A stretch of 28,758 bases of DNA from Myxococcales bacterium. GTDB taxonomy: Bacteria > Myxococcota_A > Polyangia > Haliangiales > Haliangiaceae. The stretch spans positions 85,650 through 114,407 of the forward strand of contig JADJJK010000031.1 in assembly GCA_016706545.1 (NCBI GenBank). Direction: 5' to 3'. Within the stretch, counting starts at the first letter, position 1. The number at the start of each line of letters is the position of its first letter. The translations under genes were made by a program, and so were the position numbers. Shown here piece after piece: positions 2,599 to 28,758 of the stretch. The notes beneath the pieces were generated by a model that was not told where the DNA came from, did no database searches, and saw only the letters and a list, made by a program, of their open reading frames with translations.

Positions 2599-4068
2599 AT
2601 GACTGAAGTCGAGATATCGACAATCGCTCTGATGGTTCGCGAGGCGCTCGATGGGCCTGACCGTCTGTTGGTCGAGGACGGATGGGGGCGATGGGGCCTA
2701 AGCACGTCTCAGACCCTTTCGCTTGCGGAGATGCTCATGGAGGTACTCGGGGACCGGGCCAGTCGACCTCTGGTGGCGTACCTGCAAAAGTCTCGACTCT
2801 ATTACGCATTCACCGCTTGCTGCTTCCTTAACCGCTTGAGTTACTGCCCGATCGATGCATCAAACCCGCTACAGAGGGTGCTCGATGTTGCTGCGCAGTT
2901 GCCAGACGCCATAATTGTCTGCGACAATGAGGAGGTCCTTGCTTCGATCTTGGAGCGAAAGATCGATGGCATCCGCATCAGCGAGGACTTTACCCGGGAA
3001 GATCGAGAGAACCGAGACGCGGTTGCAATGCCCGGGACGAAGAGTCCGCACTATTGTATCGCCACATCCGGTAGCACCGGTACACCGAAGTTGGTGCTGG
3101 TTCCGCATGATCACACGATTCCATTTGTGCGCTGGGCAGTACCCTTCTATAGAATCGGTCAAGGTTGCCGTTGGGCGCAATTCTCAAGCATCGGGTTCGA
3201 CCTTTCGCTCGTTGACTTCTTGTCTGTGGTGTGTGGCGGCGGGGTTCTCATTTCGCTTTCCTCTCAGCTCGACCGCATGCGTCCGGCGCTTGCGGTGAAA
3301 CGATGCCGTATTACCCACTGGCACTCCGTGCCGTCGATGATCCCGTACTTTCTCATCGATTCGGTAGGGGACGATCAGTCCACATGTCAGGTGTTCTCGT
3401 TCTGCGGTGAACCGCTTCAGCGAGCAAATGCAGACAAGCTCATGGCTCGATACCCTGGGGCAAGAATCGTAAATACATATGGTCCAACCGAAGGCACGCT
3501 GTTCTGCTCATTCTTCGAATATCGCCCCAATGACGAGACCGTGGTCGGAGACTTCGTCCCCATCGGACAACCGATACCACCGTGGAACTTCATCCTAATT
3601 CCCGAGGAGCGAGCGGAAAGGCTGGTGCTCATTGCCCCGAACATTGCCGACGGTTATGTCGGAACCGAATCCGCCGCGTTCGCCGCCGTCGATCTGTTTG
3701 GGTTCCGGCTACGCGCTTTCGACACGGGGGACAGGGTGAAGAGGCTTGGGCTACATCTCTATTTTTCACATCGAGTGGACACTATGGTGAAGGTGAATGG
3801 AAATCGCTTAGATCTCGCCGAGGTGGAGGCCGTTGCACAGCGCCTTGGTTTCACCAATCCGATGGCATTCGTGGTGGGAAGCGGAGTAACTTTGGTGGCC
3901 GAAGGAGAGCAAGACGCGGTGACGCTCCTGATCCAACAACTCGGTGAGCACCTGCCGCAGTATGGCGTTCCCAATGTTGTGCGAGTTGTTCCCGCGCACC
4001 CGCGCACCCCAAGCGGCAAGCTCGACCGGCGGGCCGTCCGAAAGTCGCTCGGAGAAAACAGTGAATAG
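2599..4068 (+). CDS. Stand-alone adenylation-domain enzyme (AMP-dependent synthetase/ligase; DltA or NRPS A-domain-like)
   Basis: Core motifs A3 TSGSTGTPKLV, A4 FDLS, A5 NTYGPTE, A7 FDTGDRV, A8 VKVNGNRLDLAEVE, A10 PSGKLDRRA. 489 aa. GC about 50%. Confidence 0.9.
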   Translation: MTEVEISTIALMVREALDGPDRLLVEDGWGRWGLSTSQTLSLAEMLMEVLGDRASRPLVAYLQKSRLYYAFTACCFLNRLSYCPIDASNPLQRVLDVAAQLPDAIIVCDNEEVLASILERKIDGIRISEDFTREDRENRDAVAMPGTKSPHYCIATSGSTGTPKLVLVPHDHTIPFVRWAVPFYRIGQGCRWAQFSSIGFDLSLVDFLSVVCGGGVLISLSSQLDRMRPALAVKRCRITHWHSVPSMIPYFLIDSVGDDQSTCQVFSFCGEPLQRANADKLMARYPGARIVNTYGPTEGTLFCSFFEYRPNDETVVGDFVPIGQPIPPWNFILIPEERAERLVLIAPNIADGYVGTESAAFAAVDLFGFRLRAFDTGDRVKRLGLHLYFSHRVDTMVKVNGNRLDLAEVEAVAQRLGFTNPMAFVVGSGVTLVAEGEQDAVTLLIQQLGEHLPQYGVPNVVRVVPAHPRTPSGKLDRRAVRKSLGENSE

Positions 4069-11875: not shown

Positions 11876-12044
11876 CGGCCGCGGCTGCCAGGCCCATTCG
11901 TCGGAGCTGCGCGTCCGTGTGCTGGCCACCGGACTGGCCACGTATCCCGACGTGACCGTGGTCTGCCAGCGCGCAGAGTAGGCGCGCGGTCGCGACAGGC
12001 GGTCGCAACGCTGAGAGTCACCGGGACAGTGATAGCGTGACGCC

Positions 12045-12977
12045 GTGAACGAGGCTGCGTCAAAGCTGGTGTGCGCGGTGTGCGGGCAGCTCGCGCAAGG
12101 CGCGCCGGAGCGCGCGCGGGTGGTGAGCAACGTGCGGCGCCTGGGGGCCGAGGAGTTCGAGGTGTGGCGTTGCTCGGCGTGCCGCTCGATCCACGCGGCG
12201 GGCGCGGTCAGCGACGCGGAGCTGGCGGCGTACTATCAGGACTACCCGTTCGCGCGCGGCAAGCGCTCGCGGGTGACGAGGTACCTGCACGGGCGGCTGT
12301 GGCGTCGCGTGGCGCGCGTGGGGATCTCCGGCCACGCCAAGGTGCTGGACTACGGCTGCGGCGCCGGGCTGCTGGTGGCGGATCTCTGCGAGCGCGGCCT
12401 TGATGCCGCTGGCTACGACGCCTATACGCCGGCCTTCCAGCGTCCAGCGCTCCTGCAGCAGCGCTACGACGTGGTGCTGGCGCAGGACGTGCTGGAGCAC
12501 GTGGAGGATCCGCTGGCGCTGCTCGAGAGGCTCGGCGCGCTGTGTCGGCCAGGTGGGGTGCTGGCGATCGGTACGCCAGACGCCAGCGCCATCGACCTGG
12601 CGCGCCCGTCGCGCTGGAAGCACTCGCTGCATCAGCCGTTTCACCGGCACCTGCTGGCGAGCCCTGCGCTCTTGGCCGCGGGCGCGGCGCGCGGCTGGCA
12701 GCTCCTCCGCTACTACCCGCGTTCGTACGCCAACACGCCGGTGCCCACACTGAACTTGCCGTACCTGCTGCGCTACCTGCGCGCGGTGGACGACACCATC
12801 GACGTCGCGTTCGACCCGCCCGCGGTGCGGCTCGCGATGTTCTCGCCAGCGGCGCTGTGGGACGCGCTGTTTGGCGCGCTGCGCTGTCCGGCGAGCGATG
12901 GGCTGGCGGTCTTTCGCGTGCCGGAGGCAGCTTTGCCGAAGCCGCCAGCACCGCCACCGGTCAGTGCAGGCGGGTGA
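12045..12977 (+). CDS. Class I SAM-dependent methyltransferase with N-terminal Cys4 zinc-ribbon
   Basis: CxxC...CxxC pairs at the N-terminus. Motif I VLDYGCGAG. Acidic motif II DVVLAQDVLEHV. GTG start. Confidence 0.8.
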   Translation: MNEAASKLVCAVCGQLAQGAPERARVVSNVRRLGAEEFEVWRCSACRSIHAAGAVSDAELAAYYQDYPFARGKRSRVTRYLHGRLWRRVARVGISGHAKVLDYGCGAGLLVADLCERGLDAAGYDAYTPAFQRPALLQQRYDVVLAQDVLEHVEDPLALLERLGALCRPGGVLAIGTPDASAIDLARPSRWKHSLHQPFHRHLLASPALLAAGAARGWQLLRYYPRSYANTPVPTLNLPYLLRYLRAVDDTIDVAFDPPAVRLAMFSPAALWDALFGALRCPASDGLAVFRVPEAALPKPPAPPPVSAGG

Positions 12978-20513: not shown

Positions 20514-20786
20514 CGCCTGCACGGTGAGCGAGGGCTCGTCGAGGCTGCCGATGGAGACCTCGAAGGAGGACGATCCACCGATGGAGTACAGGGCGACCTC
20601 CTCGCGGGGCGCGGGGGAGGACCGGCCAGGGTTGGAGTAGTAGTTCGTTGGACGACGGCGAGGGGGCTGCACGTCGGTGTGGCGCCTGCGGCGGGCGCCC
20701 TGCGACAAAATCTTTTTGTCTCGTGACCTGCAGGATCCGAGGCGGCCTGGCGGGGTGCTTTTCACCACCTGCTAGAGTGCGCCGCC

Positions 20787-21782
20787 ATGTCCCGCCACCC
20801 CAAGCTGCCGATCGATCCGCTCGCTGACCCCGACGTGCCCAAGGGCATGTCCCTGGCCCTCTTGCAGGAGCTGCACCTTCTGACCCGCGACGGCCAGCTC
20901 AACCAGGACGCCCGGCGCAAGCTCAAGCAGATCCGCCACTTCGTGGGGCTCCTTCGGCCAGCGCTCGACGACGTGTACGCGCGGCACCAGGAGCCGGTCA
21001 TCGTCGACTGTGGCGCCGGCAAGTCGTACCTGGGCTTCTTGCTGTACGAGCTGGTGGTGGGGCCTTCGGGACGCGGCCGGTTGTGCGCGGTGGAGGTGCG
21101 GCAGGAGCTGGTGGCGGCGGCGCGGCAGCGCGCGGCCCGCTTTGGCCACGAGCGCTTCGCCTTCGCGGCGGCCCGGATCGGCGAGGGGGAGGGCGCCCCG
21201 GCTGCTCGGGCCAGCGCCGCGCCGACCCAGGCGCCTGGCGCTGGCCAGGAGGGCCTGCCAGAGCGCCTGCACGTGGTGGTGGCGCTGCACGCCTGCGACA
21301 CCGCCACCGATGACGCGATCGCGCTGGCCCTGCGCCACCGCGCGGACTACGTGGCGGTGGTGCCGTGCTGCCAGGCGGAGGTGGCGCGGCAACTGCGAGG
21401 CCCGGTGGGCGCGGCGGCGGCGCTCAGCGCGGACGCCACCGACTCCGACGATGCGGGTGAGGTGCTCGGGTTCTCCGGCGGCGCCGAGGACGCGCCGGCG
21501 CAGGTGGCGGTGGATCCGCTCCGCGCCCTGTTTCGCCACCCGCTGCACCGACGCGAGCTGGGCTCTCACCTCACCAACGTGGTGCGCGCGCTGGCGCTGA
21601 CCGCCCACGGCTACCAGGTCACGGTGACCGAGCTGGTCGGGTGGGAGCACTCGGCCAAGAACGAGCTCATCTTGGCGCGGCGCGTGGGACGAGACAACCC
21701 GCGCGCCGCCGCCGAGCTGGCCGCGCTGTGTACGCGCTTTGGCATCCAACCGGCGATCGTGCGGGCGCTAGCCACGCACTGA
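20787..21782 (+). CDS. SAM-dependent methyltransferase (Methyltransf_32-like)
   Basis: VIVDCGAGKSYLG motif I and ALHACDTATDDAI. The opposing 325-aa ORF is an Arg-rich artefact. Confidence 0.8.
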   Translation: MSRHPKLPIDPLADPDVPKGMSLALLQELHLLTRDGQLNQDARRKLKQIRHFVGLLRPALDDVYARHQEPVIVDCGAGKSYLGFLLYELVVGPSGRGRLCAVEVRQELVAAARQRAARFGHERFAFAAARIGEGEGAPAARASAAPTQAPGAGQEGLPERLHVVVALHACDTATDDAIALALRHRADYVAVVPCCQAEVARQLRGPVGAAAALSADATDSDDAGEVLGFSGGAEDAPAQVAVDPLRALFRHPLHRRELGSHLTNVVRALALTAHGYQVTVTELVGWEHSAKNELILARRVGRDNPRAAAELAALCTRFGIQPAIVRALATH

Positions 21783-23609: not shown

Positions 23610-25283
23610 TCAGCCAGCGCCCACCGCGCCCGTGGTCGGCAGCTCGCCGAGGGGGCGGGGGCGCAGCGCGTCGAGCACCATCACCGCGGCCAGCGCCAGG
23701 AGCAGCACGGACACCAGGCCGTTGATCCACGGCGGCGAGCCCGCGTGCGCTTGCCAGAGCTGGCGCGCTTGCAAGCCCAGCGAGGTGACGGTCACCGCCA
23801 TCACGCCGAGCATCGGATAGAACGTGTACCAGGTCCGGCGCCCCTGCCGCTTCATCCACACCGTGATGGCCAGAAGGGACAGCGCGGCCAGGAGCTGGTT
23901 GGAGGAGCCAAACAAGGTCCAGAACAGTCGGAACGAGCCGGACTTGGTGGCCAGGAGAAACAGCAGCGGCACGCCGCAGGTGGCGGCGGTGGCGAGCGCC
24001 GCCGACAGCAGGCCGCGCGTGCCGGTCAGCTCCTGCAGGATGTAGCGCCCGAGCCGCGTGGCCGAGTCCAGCGTATCGAAGATGAAGGTCGACAGCGCCA
24101 TCGCGCCGAAGGTCATGGCGATCATCGGCGTCATCCCGAAGAGCTTGTGCAGGAAGGCGCCGATGCCCATCGCGTACACCGCGCCGGGCGCCTTGCCGGC
24201 GGTGTCCGCGGGGGCGACGATCATGATGGTGGCCAGGGCGATGAGCGCGACGAAGGCCTCGAGCAGCATCGCGCCGTAGCCGATGGGGTGGCAGTGGCTC
24301 TCTCGGTCGATCTGCTTGGAGGTGGTGCCCGAGCACACGAGCCCGTGGAAGCCCGAGCACGCGCCGCAGGCGATGGTCACGAAGAGGAACGGAAACAGCG
24401 TGCCGCCCTGAGAGGTGAAGCCCAGGAACGCCGGCTGCTTGATCTCGAAGCCGCCCAGGAAGATGCCGAGCGTGCCCACCGCGAGCGCGGAGTACAGGAC
24501 GAAGCCGCCCAGGTAGCCGCGCGGCTGCATGAGCAGCCACATCGGCGAGATCGACGCCACGAAGCAGTAGCCGATGATGAGCAGCGCCCAGCTCTTCCAG
24601 CCGAGGACGAGCACGGTGGACAGCTCGGTGCCTAGCCACACCGCGCCGAAGGTGGCGGGCACGAAGATCGCGGTCAGGAGCCACAGCGGCGGCTTCCACA
24701 GCCTCGTCACCACGCCCATCACCAGGGCCAGGCCCAGGTACAGGAGGCTCGACATGGCCACCGCGCCGCCCTGGTTGAACCGGAAGGTCAGGCCCTTGAC
24801 GTCCGCGTCGCCGGTCACGAACGTGCCAGCGGTGATGTCGACGAACGCCACGATCACGTAGATGAGCGCCATCCAGATGAAGGCGAGGATGGCGAGCCAC
24901 GCGCGCCGCCCCATGTTGACCTTCACCACCTCCGCCACGGTCATGGCGTTGTGGCGCACCGAGGCCACCAGGGTGGTGAAGTCGTGGACCGCGCCGATGA
25001 ACACGACGCCGATGGAGATCCACAAGATCGCGGGCAGCCAGCCAAACTGCTGGCAGGCCAGGATGGGCCCGACGATGGGCCCCGCGGCGGCGATGGCGCT
25101 GAAGTGCTGTCCAAACAGGTAGAACGGCTTGGTCGGCACGAAGTCCAGGCCGTCCTGGTGGCGATGCGCCGGGGTGTCCTGGGTGTCGCCCAGGTGGTAC
25201 TGGCGCGCGACGAAGCCCCCGTAGTAGCGATACGCCAGGGCCAAGGTCACCAGGACGGCGATGGCGAGCACGGGCAAGGTCAT
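23610..25283 (-). CDS. cstA: Carbon starvation protein A family transporter
   Basis: Polytopic membrane protein with CstA signatures FGQHFSAIAAAGPIVGPILA and ACGACSGFHGLVCSGTTSKQ. Confidence 0.9.
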   Translation of the reverse strand: MTLPVLAIAVLVTLALAYRYYGGFVARQYHLGDTQDTPAHRHQDGLDFVPTKPFYLFGQHFSAIAAAGPIVGPILACQQFGWLPAILWISIGVVFIGAVHDFTTLVASVRHNAMTVAEVVKVNMGRRAWLAILAFIWMALIYVIVAFVDITAGTFVTGDADVKGLTFRFNQGGAVAMSSLLYLGLALVMGVVTRLWKPPLWLLTAIFVPATFGAVWLGTELSTVLVLGWKSWALLIIGYCFVASISPMWLLMQPRGYLGGFVLYSALAVGTLGIFLGGFEIKQPAFLGFTSQGGTLFPFLFVTIACGACSGFHGLVCSGTTSKQIDRESHCHPIGYGAMLLEAFVALIALATIMIVAPADTAGKAPGAVYAMGIGAFLHKLFGMTPMIAMTFGAMALSTFIFDTLDSATRLGRYILQELTGTRGLLSAALATAATCGVPLLFLLATKSGSFRLFWTLFGSSNQLLAALSLLAITVWMKRQGRRTWYTFYPMLGVMAVTVTSLGLQARQLWQAHAGSPPWINGLVSVLLLALAAVMVLDALRPRPLGELPTTGAVGAG

Positions 25284-25462
25284 GGCCGCCAGCCTATCTC
25301 AAGCGGCCCCACGCTGGCGGCGGCGACGGCGACGCCTTGGTCCTGGGGCCCGTTTGTCAGCGGTCCGGGCCGACCGGGAGGCGCCTGGGGAGGCGCTTGG
25401 CCGACGGCAGGTGGCGCCAGGCCCGGCGAGGAGGCCGCCGATCGTGCTAGGGTCGCCGCCCT

Positions 25463-26647
25463 ATGGCTGGAGACGACGAAGATTTTGCATCCATGTTCGC
25501 GGCCTTCGAGAGCGCGACACCGCGCCAGGACCGCAAGCGGCCGAGGGTTGGCGATCTGGTGTCGGGCACCATCATCTCGATCGGCAAGGACGCCGTCTTC
25601 GTCGATATTGGCGGCAAGGCCGAGGGCACGCTGGACCGCGCCCAGGTCGAGGACCGTGACGGCAAGATGATCGTCGCCATCGGCGAGACCGTCGAGGCGC
25701 GGGTGGCCCAGGACGCCGGCGGTGTCCTGAGCCTGCGCATCAAGGTCATGCGCGGCCCCGAGGCCAAGGCGGAGCTGGTCAGCGCCCAGGAGATGGGGCT
25801 GCCGGTGGAGGGCCTGGTCACCGAGGTGGTCAAGGGCGGGCTCTCGGTGGACGTCGCCGGGGTGCGCGGGTTCTGCCCGGCATCGCAGATCGACAACCGC
25901 TTCGTCGAGGATCTGGCCGGCTTCGTGGGGCAGCGGCTGACCTTCCGCATCTCGCGCTACGAGCCGGGCGGCCGCGGCAACCTGGTGCTGTCGCGCCGGG
26001 TGCTCCTGGAAGAGGAGCGAGAGAAGATCGCGGCCAAGACCCGAGAGCACCTGAAGGTGGGCGCGACGATGCGCGGCAAGGTGGTCGGCTTCAAGCCGTT
26101 CGGCGCCTTCGTCGATCTGGGCGGCATCGAGGGCATGCTGCACGTCTCGGAGCTCGGGTTCTCGCGCGTCGAGCGTCCGGAGGACGTGCTCACGCTCGGC
26201 CAGGAGGTGGACGTGGCGGTGCTCAAGATCGAGCCGGGCGACAAGGGGCAGCGCATCGCGCTGTCGCTCAAGGCGCTGGCCGCGGATCCGTGGCACGACG
26301 CGAGCCGCACCCTGGTGGACGGCGCGCGCATCAAGGGCAAGATCGTGCGCATGCAGCCCTTCGGCGTGTTCGTGGAGGTGGCGCCGGGCATCGAGGGGCT
26401 GGTCCACATCAGCGAGCTGGGCGCCGGCCGGCGCATCAACCACCCGCGCGAGGTGGTGAGCGAAGGGCAAGAGGTCGAGGTCCAGGTGATGGGCGTGGAC
26501 CCGGAGCGACGGCGGGTGTCGCTGTCCATGGCCGCGGCGGCCGCCGGTGGTGGCGCCAGCGCGGAGGACGTGGCAGCGGCGACCCAGCGCTCGTCGCCCT
26601 CGGCGCAGCTCGGCACGCTCGCCGATCTGCTCAAGCTCAAGCGATAG
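25463..26647 (+). CDS. S1 RNA-binding domain protein (four tandem S1 domains; ribosomal protein S1-like paralog)
   Basis: Repeated S1 modules (GDLVSGTIISIGKDAVFVDIGG...; VEGLVTEVVKGGLSVDV; MRGKVVGFKPFGAFVDLGG; IKGKIVRMQPFGVFVEV). Confidence 0.85.
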   Translation: MAGDDEDFASMFAAFESATPRQDRKRPRVGDLVSGTIISIGKDAVFVDIGGKAEGTLDRAQVEDRDGKMIVAIGETVEARVAQDAGGVLSLRIKVMRGPEAKAELVSAQEMGLPVEGLVTEVVKGGLSVDVAGVRGFCPASQIDNRFVEDLAGFVGQRLTFRISRYEPGGRGNLVLSRRVLLEEEREKIAAKTREHLKVGATMRGKVVGFKPFGAFVDLGGIEGMLHVSELGFSRVERPEDVLTLGQEVDVAVLKIEPGDKGQRIALSLKALAADPWHDASRTLVDGARIKGKIVRMQPFGVFVEVAPGIEGLVHISELGAGRRINHPREVVSEGQEVEVQVMGVDPERRRVSLSMAAAAAGGGASAEDVAAATQRSSPSAQLGTLADLLKLKR

Positions 26648-26785
26648 GACGCGCCGCCAGGGCGGCGGTGACGCCGAAGCGCGCGGCCAGCTCGCCGAAC
26701 TCTCGGCGAGCTTTCGGCAGGCGCTCGCCCGGAGCCCTCGGTCAGCGCTCGCTGGCCATCCCCTGCTCGCGCCAGCGCGCGCCGG

Positions 26786-27154
26786 CTACGGCTTGGCGAT
26801 GGTGAAGCCGGTGAGGCAGCGGAACTGCTTCTGGTTGTACTCGCTGGCGACGTACTCGAGCGTCACCTGGTCGCCGTTGCGGTACGCGGCGTAGAGGATC
26901 TGGATGCTGGTCTCCGACAGCTCCCGGCCCTTGCACTGCAGGCCGCCCCAGCGATAGTTCGTGGACGCCTTGTCGAGCCCGAGCCACACCGCGCCGTGGA
27001 ACAGGCGGTAGCTCGAGTCCCCGGGCTCGAGCAACATGAGCTGGGCCAGGGTGGAGGTGGGGGTGGTGTCGGCGTGAGCCGGCGTGGGCCGAAGAAGCCC
27101 GACCGCCCCGGCGACCGCGACGACGAGGATGACCGCGACAAGCGAACGACGCAT
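26786..27154 (-). CDS. Small hypothetical secreted protein (Met 27154 start; the track ORF extends to GTG 27196)
   Basis: MRRSLVAVILVVAVAGAVGLLRPTPAHA signal peptide. Mature part has balanced composition (YRWGGLQCKGRELSETSIQILYAAYRNGDQ...). Confidence 0.6.
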   Translation of the reverse strand: MRRSLVAVILVVAVAGAVGLLRPTPAHADTTPTSTLAQLMLLEPGDSSYRLFHGAVWLGLDKASTNYRWGGLQCKGRELSETSIQILYAAYRNGDQVTLEYVASEYNQKQFRCLTGFTIAKP

Positions 27155-27367
27155 GCGCAGATGATACTCGGGCCAAGGGCGAGGGAGGAAATTCACGGAT
27201 CGCTGTTTTCCCCGGCGGCCAGGCTTTCCTTGGCCAAGCAGGCGCGAGGCGACGCCCGCCTCGAGAGGCGGCCATCGCGTGAAATCTCGTGACCGTGGGC
27301 CAGGTTGTGGGATCGTGTGGATTGTCTGTCATGTGCCGTCCCTCCGTAGGCACAGAGGGCAAGAGAC

Positions 27368-28758
27368 ATGGAACGAAGCGATGCAGAGTTGCTCGAGGCC
27401 TCCCGGCGTGGCGAGCGCGCGGCGTTCGCGACCTTGGTAGAGCGGTATCAGGGCGTGGTCTGCGCGGTGTCGTATAGCCGCACCGGCGACCGCGCGCTGA
27501 GCGAGGACGTCGCGCAGGACACCTTCTTGGCTGCGTGGCGCCAGCTCCATCAGGTCCGCGAGGTACACAGGCTGCGCGCGTGGCTATGCGGGATCGCGCG
27601 CAACCTGTCGCTCAAGGCGCGGCGCAAGCGCGCTCGCGAGACGCCGGTGGAGGACGAGCTCGAGCAGTCTGCCTCCGCCGATCTGTTCGAGCAGGTCAGC
27701 GACCGGCAAGCGGAGCGCCTGGTGCGCGACGCGCTGCACCGGGTGCCGGAGATCTACCGCGACGCGCTGGTGCTCTACTATCACGAGCAGCAGTCCGCTC
27801 GGGAGGTGGCGCTGGCGCTGGGGATAAGCGAAGCGGCGGTGCTGCAGCGCCTCGCTCGTGGTCGCCAGCTCCTCGCCGCGGGCGTCAGCGGGCTCGTGGA
27901 GCGCGCGCTGCGCGGCCCGCTGCCGCGCCAGAGCCTCGTCGTCGGTGTGCTCGCCGCCTTGCCAGCCCTCGCTCCGTCCCATGCCAGCGCGACCACCACA
28001 GCAACCACGTATGGAGGGACCATGTTGAAAGTAGCTCTCGTGACCTGCGCGCTCGCCGCCGCCGGCACCGCCGTGTACGTAACGAAGTCTTCCTCGTCGG
28101 CTCGAGCGCCGACCCCGGCGGTCGTCGCCGCGTCGCCAGCGGCGGCCCAGGCAGCGCTGGCGCCCGCCGCTCGGCCGACCGCTGCGGCCGCTGCGGCCGC
28201 TGCGGCCGCGACCCCCGCCGCGACGACGGCGCCGGCTGACCCAGCGACCGCCGCCAGCGAGGCGCCTGGCGCGCCCTGTCCGGATGCGCCAGGCGGCTGT
28301 GACAACAGCGCGCCGGCGCTCGAGGCCCTGCCGCTGGTGGACGCCGCGACCAGCGCGCGCCTGGGCCTGCGCGACGGGCCGTCTCGCGGCGCCGCGGACG
28401 CGCCGGTGACCATCACGATGTTCACCGACCTGCAGTGCAAGTTCTGCGGCGAGGCGCTGGGCGGACTCGACCAGCTCCTCGAGGACTACCCAGGCAAGCT
28501 GCGCATCGTGATCAAGCAGTTCCCGGTGCGCAAGAACTCCGACCTGGCCGCCGAGGCCGCGCTGGCCGCCGAGGCGCAGGGCAAGTTCTGGGACCTGTAT
28601 GATCTGATGATGGCCAACCAGGACAGCCTGTCTCCCGACGGCCTGCTGGCGCTGGCCAAGCGCGCCGGGCTCGACGGTGCTGCGTTCCAGGCGGCGCTCA
28701 GCCAGCGCACGTATCGCGCGGCGGTGGAACAGTCCATGGCCGCTGGCAAGGAGCTGCA
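27368..28758 (+). CDS. ECF sigma factor continuing in-frame, without a stop, into a transmembrane segment, Ala/Pro-rich linker and DsbA-like thioredoxin domain (3'-partial; runs off the window)
   Basis: Sigma region 2 (LSEDVAQDTFLAAWRQL) and region 4 (EVALALGISEAAVLQRLARGRQLL). Hydrophobic segment MLKVALVTCALAAAGTAVYV (internal ATG at 28022 preceded by GGAGGG). CxxC thioredoxin motif ITMFTDLQCKFCGE...LRIVIKQFPV...AQGKFWDLYD. My frame-1 reading reproduces the track ORF 27535-28239 exactly, and no stop is seen in frame 2. Confidence 0.8.
   Translation, partial: MERSDAELLEASRRGERAAFATLVERYQGVVCAVSYSRTGDRALSEDVAQDTFLAAWRQLHQVREVHRLRAWLCGIARNLSLKARRKRARETPVEDELEQSASADLFEQVSDRQAERLVRDALHRVPEIYRDALVLYYHEQQSAREVALALGISEAAVLQRLARGRQLLAAGVSGLVERALRGPLPRQSLVVGVLAALPALAPSHASATTTATTYGGTMLKVALVTCALAAAGTAVYVTKSSSSARAPTPAVVAASPAAAQAALAPAARPTAAAAAAAAAATPAATTAPADPATAASEAPGAPCPDAPGGCDNSAPALEALPLVDAATSARLGLRDGPSRGAADAPVTITMFTDLQCKFCGEALGGLDQLLEDYPGKLRIVIKQFPVRKNSDLAAEAALAAEAQGKFWDLYDLMMANQDSLSPDGLLALAKRAGLDGAAFQAALSQRTYRAAVEQSMAAGKEL

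Follow-up and report, generated by a model that had tools for sequence, protein, structure and literature searches.

Positions 27368 to 28758 on the forward strand of the stretch examined here (28,758 nucleotides of a Myxococcales bacterium, contig JADJJK010000031.1; hereafter the window) hold one open reading frame (ORF) that encodes an extracytoplasmic function (ECF) sigma factor, a short junction, a single transmembrane (TM) helix, a linker rich in alanine and proline, and a DsbA-like thioredoxin-fold domain. Comparison with related sequences suggests that this is probably one functional gene of a conserved Haliangiales/Kofleriaceae family, and that it encodes a sigma/sensor hybrid resembling IutY of Pseudomonas putida, in which the DsbA-type domain would be a new sort of sensor, together with a sigma-less TM-DsbA product; this judgement applies to the explanation as a whole. 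The sequence-only reading of this DNA had left two outcomes: that the sigma and redox domains truly form one polypeptide, or that a sigma gene had recently lost its stop codon in front of a separate DsbA-like gene. The conservation of the frame bears out the first and not the second, while the Shine-Dalgarno (SD) sequence and ATG that were the cue for the second are real, and the truth is likely to merge the two, with one ORF that has an internal start as well. The parts of the gene are as follows.

27368 to 28758, + strand: ORF of 463 codons (sigma, junction, TM helix, linker and DsbA-like domain), free of stops and with high third-position GC (GC3)

27434 to 27637, + strand: sigma region 2, residues 23-90 (Pfam PF04542 Sigma70_r2, E 3.5e-15)

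27719 to 27874, + strand: sigma region 4, residues 118-169 (Pfam PF08281 Sigma70_r4_2, E 2.5e-9)

27926 to 27973, + strand: junction helix QSLVVGVLAALPALAP, residues 187-202, between sigma region 4 and the membrane helix, conserved at the protein level

27972 to 27985, + strand: C/U-rich element CTCCGTCCCATGCC, complementary to the SD and proposed as the 5' arm of a hairpin on the basis of rare codons and predicted folds

28013 to 28018, + strand: internal SD GGAGGG (codons GGA GGG), 3 nt before the internal ATG, marked by biased codon choice

28022 to 28024, + strand: putative in-frame internal start codon, M219 (invariant Met, open mRNA)

28022 to 28084, + strand: single hydrophobic helix MLKVALVTCALAAAGTAVYVT, residues 219-239 (Kyte-Doolittle, AlphaFold2)

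28085 to 28375, + strand: low-complexity linker rich in Ala and Pro, residues 240-336 (composition, AlphaFold2 disorder)

28376 to 28758, + strand: DsbA-like thioredoxin-fold domain, residues 337-463, cut by the window end (Pfam PF13462, PF01323)

28436 to 28447, + strand: active site CKFC, residues 357-360, read from the sequence

Intact sigma regions 2 and 4, a stop-free frame, a hydrophobic helix, an Ala/Pro linker and a domain with a CKFC site had all been described in the sequence-only reading, and each was found again at the same place. By direct translation there are zero stops in the frame of the ATG at 27368 up to base 28758, where a stop is lacking because the contig and the window end there. 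About 25-30 C-terminal residues are cut off in this copy, among them the cis-Pro loop GTPAF of complete orthologues. The identical partial protein (P0001, 463 aa) is deposited at NCBI as a 'partial' sigma factor from a Myxococcales metagenome-assembled genome (MAG). In a GC3 frame plot the third-position GC is high in one single frame on both flanks of the junction, and there is therefore no hidden frameshift; a hidden frameshift or stop is ruled out by the direct translation together with this plot. The hydrophobic stretch SLVVGVLAALPALAP (residues 188-202) is followed by a spacer of Thr, Ser and Ala, and the codons before and at the internal start read TAT GGA GGG ACC ATG.

The fusion is conserved. 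Searching 5.8 billion proteins gave 625 matches at E <= 1e-10, and among the best 120 of these 625 both the sigma and the DsbA Pfam domains are present in 120/120; the 119 that are not the window protein itself (P0002-P0120) are 53-69% identical to it and 466-532 aa long. Those of the listed matches that are named come from Kofleriaceae or Haliangiales MAGs. At the DNA level, 160 loci were gathered through one genome scan and one metagenome scan, and their frames were read without gene calling. The sigma frame runs without interruption into the membrane helix in 81 non-identical DNA contexts from Myxococcota genome and metagenome loci, and it is kept across a spacer that, measured from the junction helix to the Met, can have anything between 12 and 34 residues. 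Conserved residues in the alignment include L190, V194, the VLAALP motif, G216, M219 and K221. That the frame is kept across more than 120 proteins and 81 loci means that the fusion is neither a sequencing error nor a recent accident, and the comparison indicates that both halves are held in one frame by selection.

There is a single exception. In locus L102 (Ga0134121_10020575) the first Gly codon before the Met is TGA (CAC TGA GGA ACC ATG) and the gene is split; at locus positions ~3630-3650 a 212-aa sigma gene is followed directly by a TM-DsbA gene that retains GAGGA and the ATG. The split may be genuine, may mark a pseudogene or may come from a read error. It had been proposed that orthologues consistently encoded as two genes would speak against the fusion, and apart from this TGA they are fused. 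Were the window ORF the outcome of a stop codon lost ahead of an independent DsbA-like gene, whether by mutation or through faulty assembly, so that the fusion protein had no function, then L102 and the SD and ATG still visible ahead of the membrane helix would be readily accounted for. That account fails to explain why the frame is open in 81 non-identical loci and more than 120 proteins, down to ~45-55% identity and despite a spacer variable in length and sequence, or why the junction is conserved at the protein level and common to relatives in other phyla that have no internal Met. The conservation data refute it, and we give it next to no probability. In the case of P0233, considered as a stand-alone TM-DsbA protein starting at the internal Met, the sequence comes from a 1.1-kb contig; this is not a split gene, because the bases upstream on that short contig are the in-frame junction.

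The internal start is where the nucleotide sequence is constrained. The bases ahead of the Met read GGA GGA, AAA GGA, AAG GGA, GAA GGA or CCA GGA G in almost all of the related loci, as in the window. The codon GGA accounts for 115/120 Gly codons (95.8%) in the six codons before the Met, as against 192/2339 (8.2%) elsewhere in the same ORFs, and GC3, which is 0.87 over these genes, drops to 0.05 at codon -3. One of the 5-mers GGAGG, AAGGA, AGGAG or GAGGA is present at -16 to -4 in 66/81 contexts (81%), compared with 2.7% of other in-frame positions. The residue ahead of the Gly varies (H, K, E, R, P, A, S, Y) and the purine-rich nucleotides are constant, which places the constraint on the RNA and not on the peptide. 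M219 itself is invariant in an alignment of 25 sequences and present in all 81 contexts. The 40-nt window at the internal ATG is the least structured of the ORF, with a mean minimum free energy of -4.3 against -13 to -16 kcal/mol elsewhere; this openness has z = +2.2 and is positive in 81/81 sequences. Downstream of the ATG, M-x-K and a hydrophobic run resemble an ordinary signal anchor or signal peptide. The pattern reaches orthologues down to ~45% identity, and the same SD-ATG-TM module is retained in Kofleriaceae paralogues that carry other periplasmic domains. On one cut-off contig, a JGI gene call placed its start at the same internal ATG. The site therefore combines what is expected of an in-frame internal start: a suitably spaced SD, conservation beyond what the protein needs, and open mRNA. 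Taken together, these patterns are strong evidence that the SD and ATG are kept by selection at the nucleotide level and are not relics, and it is quite likely that translation from M219 yields a sigma-less TM-DsbA protein in the same frame. At the second codon after the internal ATG the rare TTG is common, consistent with low structure at a start. A frameshift or termination-reinitiation mechanism using the TGA in the +1 frame after the ATG was considered and set aside, as this TGA follows from the Met-Ile/Leu codons and the sigma part is read in frame 0.

The same signals could serve another purpose in a gene of which the full-length fusion is the sole protein. The GGA-GGA/ATG sequence and the element complementary to it might form a structure for mRNA stability, might cause a pause before the membrane helix for targeting, or might merely encode a peptide motif, H-G-G-x-M-x-K, at the membrane face or at a protease site. 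H215, G216, M219 and K221 are conserved as amino acids, the conserved complementary element does suggest RNA structure, and in the HGG type the spacing from SD to ATG is short (4 nt after GGAGG). A peptide motif fails to explain the 96% use of the rarest Gly codon, or why AGGA or GGAGG is kept when the preceding residue varies; a pause at this point would precede translation of any membrane helix; and the ATG lies in the least structured window of the gene, as true start sites do, and is followed by a textbook M-x-K and hydrophobic N-terminus. A single product is for these reasons unlikely, and translation from M219 in addition to the first ATG is the preferred reading.

Access to the internal SD may be controlled by the RNA itself. 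About 40 nt upstream of the internal start, the codons for A-P-S-R/H (GCT CCG TCC CGT/CAT G) are fixed at the nucleotide level, and, when the loci are anchored at the protein level, the Arg/His codon is CGT or CAT in 53/56 loci (backgrounds 6.6% and 15.9%). The C/U-rich element so formed is complementary to the SD region and is paired with the SD in single-sequence folds. When the 5' arm alone was randomised synonymously the pairing probability of the SD fell from 0.70 to 0.55; the native value exceeds the randomised one in 83% of sequences (Wilcoxon p ~1e-11, a value that carries no phylogenetic correction), and the native sequences are less stable overall. Changes of a compensatory kind are seen, in that CGT to CAT goes with a change in the partner from CAC to CAT or TAT (the window itself, L001 and L085), and L012, the only locus with GGT for GGA, has GAA in place of GAT opposite it. 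In a formal count over 33 HGG-type sequences, pairing is seen in 87% of cells, and in 29-49% once the partner has been slid, and one pair of the hairpin is G-C in 24 sequences and A-U in 4. The evidence for a hairpin that sequesters the SD is suggestive. In the paralogue group that includes L009 and L011-L014, the hairpin is predicted to take in the AUG as well as the SD (GUCGAU with AUCGAC).

The first start is of a different kind. None of the SD 5-mers is found before the first ATG in any of 41 orthologous upstream regions (0/41), where two other elements are present.

27327 to 27353, + strand: proximal promoter-like element, TGTCATGT, 15 nt, GCAC, ending 14 nt before the ATG at 27368

27280 to 27306, + strand: distal promoter-like element, TGAAAT, 18 nt, GTT (GGAAT-N17-19-GTT type), of a kind present in 23/41 upstream regions

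The proximal element has the form TGTCA(T/G)GT-N14-(G)GCAC at a fixed distance from the start, with GCAC 11-14 nt ahead of GACATG and a constant 18 nt from TGTCA to GCAC. The pattern TGTCA-N-GT-N13-15-[AG]CAC occurs 63 times on both strands of the 1.29 Mb of sequence gathered, and at least 61 of these occurrences are directly upstream of sigma-fusion gene starts, including one that belongs to an Opitutaceae homologue (L041), in which the start context reads TGTCAGGT-N-GCAC-N-GACATG. This geometry fits a promoter from which the transcript would start at the ATG or a few bases before it. With no SD before the first ATG and a promoter-like element 11-14 nt upstream, the sigma mRNA is probably leaderless or nearly so. 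In those 23 regions the distal element, GGAA(A)T-N17-19-GTT, is ~85 nt ahead of the start, where mononucleotide shuffles give an average of 0.27. It may act as a second promoter, in which case the leader would be long and lack an SD; we take it to resemble promoters of the SigR/SigH type. Two conserved promoter-like elements upstream of the sigma factor's own gene make it a candidate for autoregulation. Neither a sigma-70-type promoter nor an intrinsic terminator was found within 26600-28758; internal promoters of the ECF type may be present.

The first seven codons of the sigma ORF (27368-27390 and orthologues) are conserved at the nucleotide level and draw on rare codons that end in A or T: ATG GGA/GAA CGA AGY GAT GCA GAG. 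Rare codons at the first start are consistent with low structure at start sites. Elsewhere in the window a TAGNNT hexamer is present 6-9 nt upstream of the start, with no SD, in several likely genes (an S1-domain protein, CstA and others; sites at 25440-25465, 25283-25310 on the - strand, 20765-20790, 12025-12047 and 2575-2600), and leaderless expression therefore seems common in this organism.

Only one 19-residue window of the protein exceeds a Kyte-Doolittle value of 1.6 (residues 218-238; helix MLKVALVTCALAAAGTAVYV). K221 is invariant on the N-terminal side of the membrane helix, and AlphaFold2 predicts a helix there. From these features MLKVALVTCALAAAGTAVYVT would be the membrane anchor of the full-length protein and the N-terminus, like that of a signal anchor or signal peptide, of the predicted short product. 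As there is a single TM helix and a sigma factor requires the cytoplasm, the predicted topology has the sigma domain in the cytoplasm and the DsbA-like domain in the periplasm. An arrangement with two membrane helices, which would put the DsbA-like domain in the cytoplasm, was rejected, the junction helix (188-202) being too short and below the hydropathy threshold, so that only 218-238 qualifies.

The linker (residues 240-335) contains 39 Ala and 14 Pro in 96 residues; it is disordered in the AlphaFold2 model, and its length and sequence vary among orthologues. Part of its poly-Ala is encoded by a perfect 9-nt tandem repeat, CCGCTGCGG, present in 3.4 copies at 28179-28209 (Tandem Repeats Finder), and this repeat is the likely source of the variation in length. 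A pair of cysteines, C304 and C311 (28277-28279 and 28298-28300), forms a C-x6-C in the linker ~45 residues before the DsbA-like domain. In the closest relatives among P0002-P0012 this pair is a CxxC (CGTC, CETC, CATC, CQTC), and in many others it is absent; it might be an intramolecular substrate of the DsbA domain.

The C-terminal domain matches Pfam Thioredoxin_4 at 337-461 (E 4e-18) and DSBA at 348-462 (E 2.3e-10), and its CxxC is invariant in 120 sequences. The cis-Pro loop, GTPAF, lies at the end of complete orthologues with the P at least 90% conserved, and falls past the window end in this copy. The AlphaFold2 model used throughout is that of the complete orthologue P0003 (70% identical), built from 120 sequences, in which the domain is predicted with high confidence (predicted local distance difference test, pLDDT, 94-99). 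Foldseek matches it to Corynebacterium diphtheriae DsbA/TsdA, 3gyk (TM-score 0.87), ScsC, BdbD and alpha-DsbA2, and a sequence search of the PDB found 3gyk, 7rgv and ScsC, with E-values to 5e-14. By sequence and model the domain is DsbA-like and catalytically equipped. P0121-P0232 include many proteins, 560-1196 aa long, that are built of 3-6 DsbA-like domains in tandem, 35-43% identical to that of the window. Proteins with several DsbA domains are unusual at that size.

The sigma part is of the ECF kind (group 4), with Pfam Sigma70_r2 and Sigma70_r4_2 as its sole sigma domains and neither region 1.1 nor region 3. It scores 76 bits against NCBIfam TIGR02937 (sigma70-ECF), for which the cutoff is 42.9, and the solved structures closest to it are those of SigL, SigW, AlgU and SigH. 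Regions 2 and 4 are modelled confidently (pLDDT ~90 or higher), in a compact pose that resembles the SigW-RsiW and CnrH-CnrY complexes, which is weak evidence, as AlphaFold2 may favour such a pose regardless.

Two junction residues, L190 and V194, never vary, and conservation reaches 90% or more at A196, L198 and P199; the junction is modelled as a helix at low confidence (pLDDT 50-62). The nearest relatives outside the myxobacteria (L020-L055, from Verrucomicrobia, Planctomycetes, Acidobacteria and Alteromonadales) have sigma domains 38-47% identical to that of the window and total lengths of 450-970 aa, with long hydrophobic C-terminal extensions (in which TM helices were not counted) and no internal Met. 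They have in common the junction motif R-x-x-P-x3-F-x3-V-L-A-A-L-P, which in the relatives from Verrucomicrobia, Planctomycetes and Alteromonadales can also be written P-x3-F/L-x3-V-L/M-A-A-L-P, and their C-terminal extensions differ. Since the one part common to these relatives is the sigma domain, the shared junction suggests that it contacts sigma. By sequence L020-L055 are probably an ECF263-like group. There are also paralogues in Kofleriaceae and other Myxococcota (L009, L011-L014, L016, L019, L133, L137 and L140-L160) that have the same backbone of sigma, junction, SD, ATG and TM with other periplasmic domains, including an uncharacterised domain of ~330 aa, Cys-rich domains and a CarboxypepD_reg-like region.

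From these observations a way of working can be proposed. Two proteins would be made from the gene: a full-length tethered sigma factor, with sigma in the cytoplasm and DsbA in the periplasm, and a TM-DsbA or secreted DsbA from M219. The sigma start would be read from a leaderless or near-leaderless mRNA, and the internal start would act as an SD-dependent internal cistron; if the internal SD is masked by the hairpin, ribosomes translating the sigma part would open it, and the two products would be coupled. Tethering would keep sigma inactive. The trigger would be the redox or folding state of the DsbA-like domain (reduced, unfolded or substrate-trapped), a change in which would expose the linker to a periplasmic protease, after which an intramembrane protease would free sigma. 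In the most speculative step, the freed sigma would act on its own promoter, giving more of the DsbA product as feedback. The TM-DsbA protein from the internal start might serve as the effector enzyme, or might compete for the same partners. If this is correct, the phrase 'self-contained redox-sensing sigma factor' used in the sequence-only reading may be apt. A broader version, slightly less likely than not, would be that the sigma-TM-X genes of the whole clade, with DsbA as one of several swappable domains, are one-gene two-product modules with a leaderless start and a hairpin-gated internal ribosome-binding site.

Several observations weigh against this explanation. The loci are related to one another, so that the counts are not independent events and overstate the number of independent observations, and the whole family is known from uncultured MAG and metagenome sequence alone. 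Besides the short spacing noted above for the HGG type, the H-G-G and M-x-K residues could have a function at the protein level. Covariation in the hairpin is weak, with 5 double-sided changes against 2.5 +/- 1.3 in shuffled alignments and 30/500 shuffles reaching 5; because this formal count is only suggestive, the hairpin is reported as tentative. No canonical anti-sigma domain is recognisable in the junction, which has no Pfam match even at E = 10, no zinc motif and no Cys. From the lack of a match and of a zinc motif it follows that the junction is not a canonical anti-sigma domain, and the ~45 residues between region 4 and the TM helix compare with the ~90 residues and HxxxCxxC of a class I anti-sigma factor/ZAS. 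AlphaFold2 gives no confident contact of the junction helix with the sigma domains (pLDDT 50-62), because of which the inactive state lacks a structural explanation; the model was dropped as a test of junction docking, its confidence there being too low. The dipeptide within the CxxC varies (KF, KY, HY, PH, PY, SH and others, with F, Y or H in second place), making a redox role less certain. The promoter-like motif was found upstream of no other gene, as a member of a regulon would require, in the 1.29 Mb of flanks.

Some of the same observations would be expected if sigma were never released, and either worked or stayed silenced while anchored, as a ToxR/CadC-type factor or a decoy, with DsbA as an anchored enzyme and neither proteolysis nor redox sensing. 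At the neighbourhoods examined there is no linked protease gene, there is no recognisable anti-sigma domain, and the variable CxxC dipeptide speaks against a finely tuned sensor. A sigma factor has to bind core RNA polymerase and move along with it during promoter escape, something that would be awkward on a tether of ~45 residues; the studied hybrid, IutY, requires cleavage by Prc and RseP (PMC5411451); and among the paralogues one backbone carries different periplasmic domains, as is usual for sensor modules. A permanently anchored sigma factor is accordingly quite improbable, more so than a gene with a single product, and release by proteolysis is the preferred reading.

The gene neighbourhood is conserved only among close relatives. 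The closest relative, L161, is syntenic with the window (CstA, S1-domain protein, small secreted protein, fusion gene), and distant orthologues are in unrelated neighbourhoods. There is a TonB-dependent receptor after the fusion gene in L161 only, and not in L163-L165. No adjacent anti-sigma gene is present at the neighbourhoods examined across lineages. Divergent from the sigma gene, at 26786-27196 (-), is a small secreted-looking protein of ~120-136 aa with a signal-peptide-like N-terminus, two Cys and no Pfam match. Its homologues in L161 and L163 (116-118 aa) adjoin the S1-domain gene, which would mean that it travels with that gene and not with the sigma gene.

The family would add three things: a sensor domain of a new type, namely a DsbA-type thiol-disulfide oxidoreductase; a naturally occurring series of paralogues that keep the sigma-junction-TM backbone and exchange the periplasmic domain; and sequence evidence that a fusion gene can still express its second half separately. 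The fusion alone is moderately interesting, and the clade-wide evidence for a nested second product raises that interest. If the internal start is used, the gene would be an example of one reading frame from which a cell adjusts the amount of a tethered regulator relative to the free sensor or enzyme, and would offer synthetic biology a compact, portable envelope-redox switch; if the two-product module is correct, the sensor, regulator and effector of an envelope redox response would be encoded and dosed by a single ORF. Automatic annotation calls these genes 'sigma-70 family sigma factor' and nothing more, and records neither the DsbA part nor the nested start.

Among known proteins, the C-terminal domain shares with membrane-anchored or secreted DsbA-like enzymes (C. 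diphtheriae DsbA/TsdA and MdbA, Bacillus subtilis BdbD, ScsC, Wolbachia alpha-DsbA2 and 3gyk) the thioredoxin fold, an inserted helical domain, the CxxC and, in complete orthologues, the T-cisPro loop. It differs in that no fusion to a sigma factor is described for any of the matched structures, and in that the CxxC dipeptide of the window family is not fixed.

By its relatives and their phyla, the nearest described group of sigma factors appears to be ECF263, a likeness that runs through the likely members L020-L055. According to the supplementary text of the classification (bioRxiv 10.1101/2019.12.11.873521), ECF263 proteins are from Proteobacteria, Verrucomicrobia and Planctomycetes and have C-terminal extensions with 5 or 7 TM helices. 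The sigma-domain relatives L020-L055 come from the same phyla, with hydrophobic extensions and the junction motif, and one of them shares the promoter-like element. In contrast, the window protein has one TM helix and a DsbA-like domain in place of five or seven TM helices, these relatives have no internal Met, and the predicted ECF263 promoter, TGCAC(A/C)-Xn-CGTC, does not match the elements found here.

The groups ECF48, ECF52 and ECF53 (e.g. SCO4117), for which proteolytic activation has been predicted (PMC8999054), are alike in having an ECF core, a membrane-spanning extension (with one or two TM helices in these groups), a Pro-rich linker and an extracytoplasmic domain (PMC8999054; PMC5826349). 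They differ in having a ZAS-like zinc finger between sigma and the membrane, where the window junction has no Cys/His motif; their outer domain binds carbohydrate and not thiol-disulfide substrates, and they are actinobacterial, from another phylum.

In the supplementary text of the 2021 ECF reclassification the word 'DsbA' is absent, the 'thioredoxin' passages displayed concern regulon or neighbouring genes and not a C-terminal extension, and neither Haliangium nor Kofleria is mentioned; within that text and the literature searched, no DsbA or thioredoxin extension on an ECF sigma factor was found. Likewise, a conserved internal start in a sigma/anti-sigma hybrid was not found in the literature searched, and a term search of the IutY paper (PMC5411451) gave no mention of one for that protein.

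To our knowledge, few ECF sigma factors fused to a membrane regulator have been described, and IutY is the only one studied in detail.

IutY is a sigma/anti-sigma hybrid (ECF243) of P. putida that is activated by regulated intramembrane proteolysis through Prc and RseP (PMC5411451; PMC8999054). The window protein resembles it in that a cytosolic ECF sigma factor, a single TM helix and a predicted periplasmic regulatory or sensor domain are found in one polypeptide, an architecture conserved in the orthologues, and in that there is no separate anti-sigma gene. The two differ in that the periplasmic part of IutY is a FecR-type anti-sigma domain, partnered by a TonB-dependent transducer, where that of the window protein is DsbA-like; their sigma domains are not close relatives, and proteolytic release of the window protein would be expected by analogy. 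What is already known, then, is an ECF sigma factor with a membrane-spanning regulatory extension, and what is new is a DsbA-type domain as that extension.

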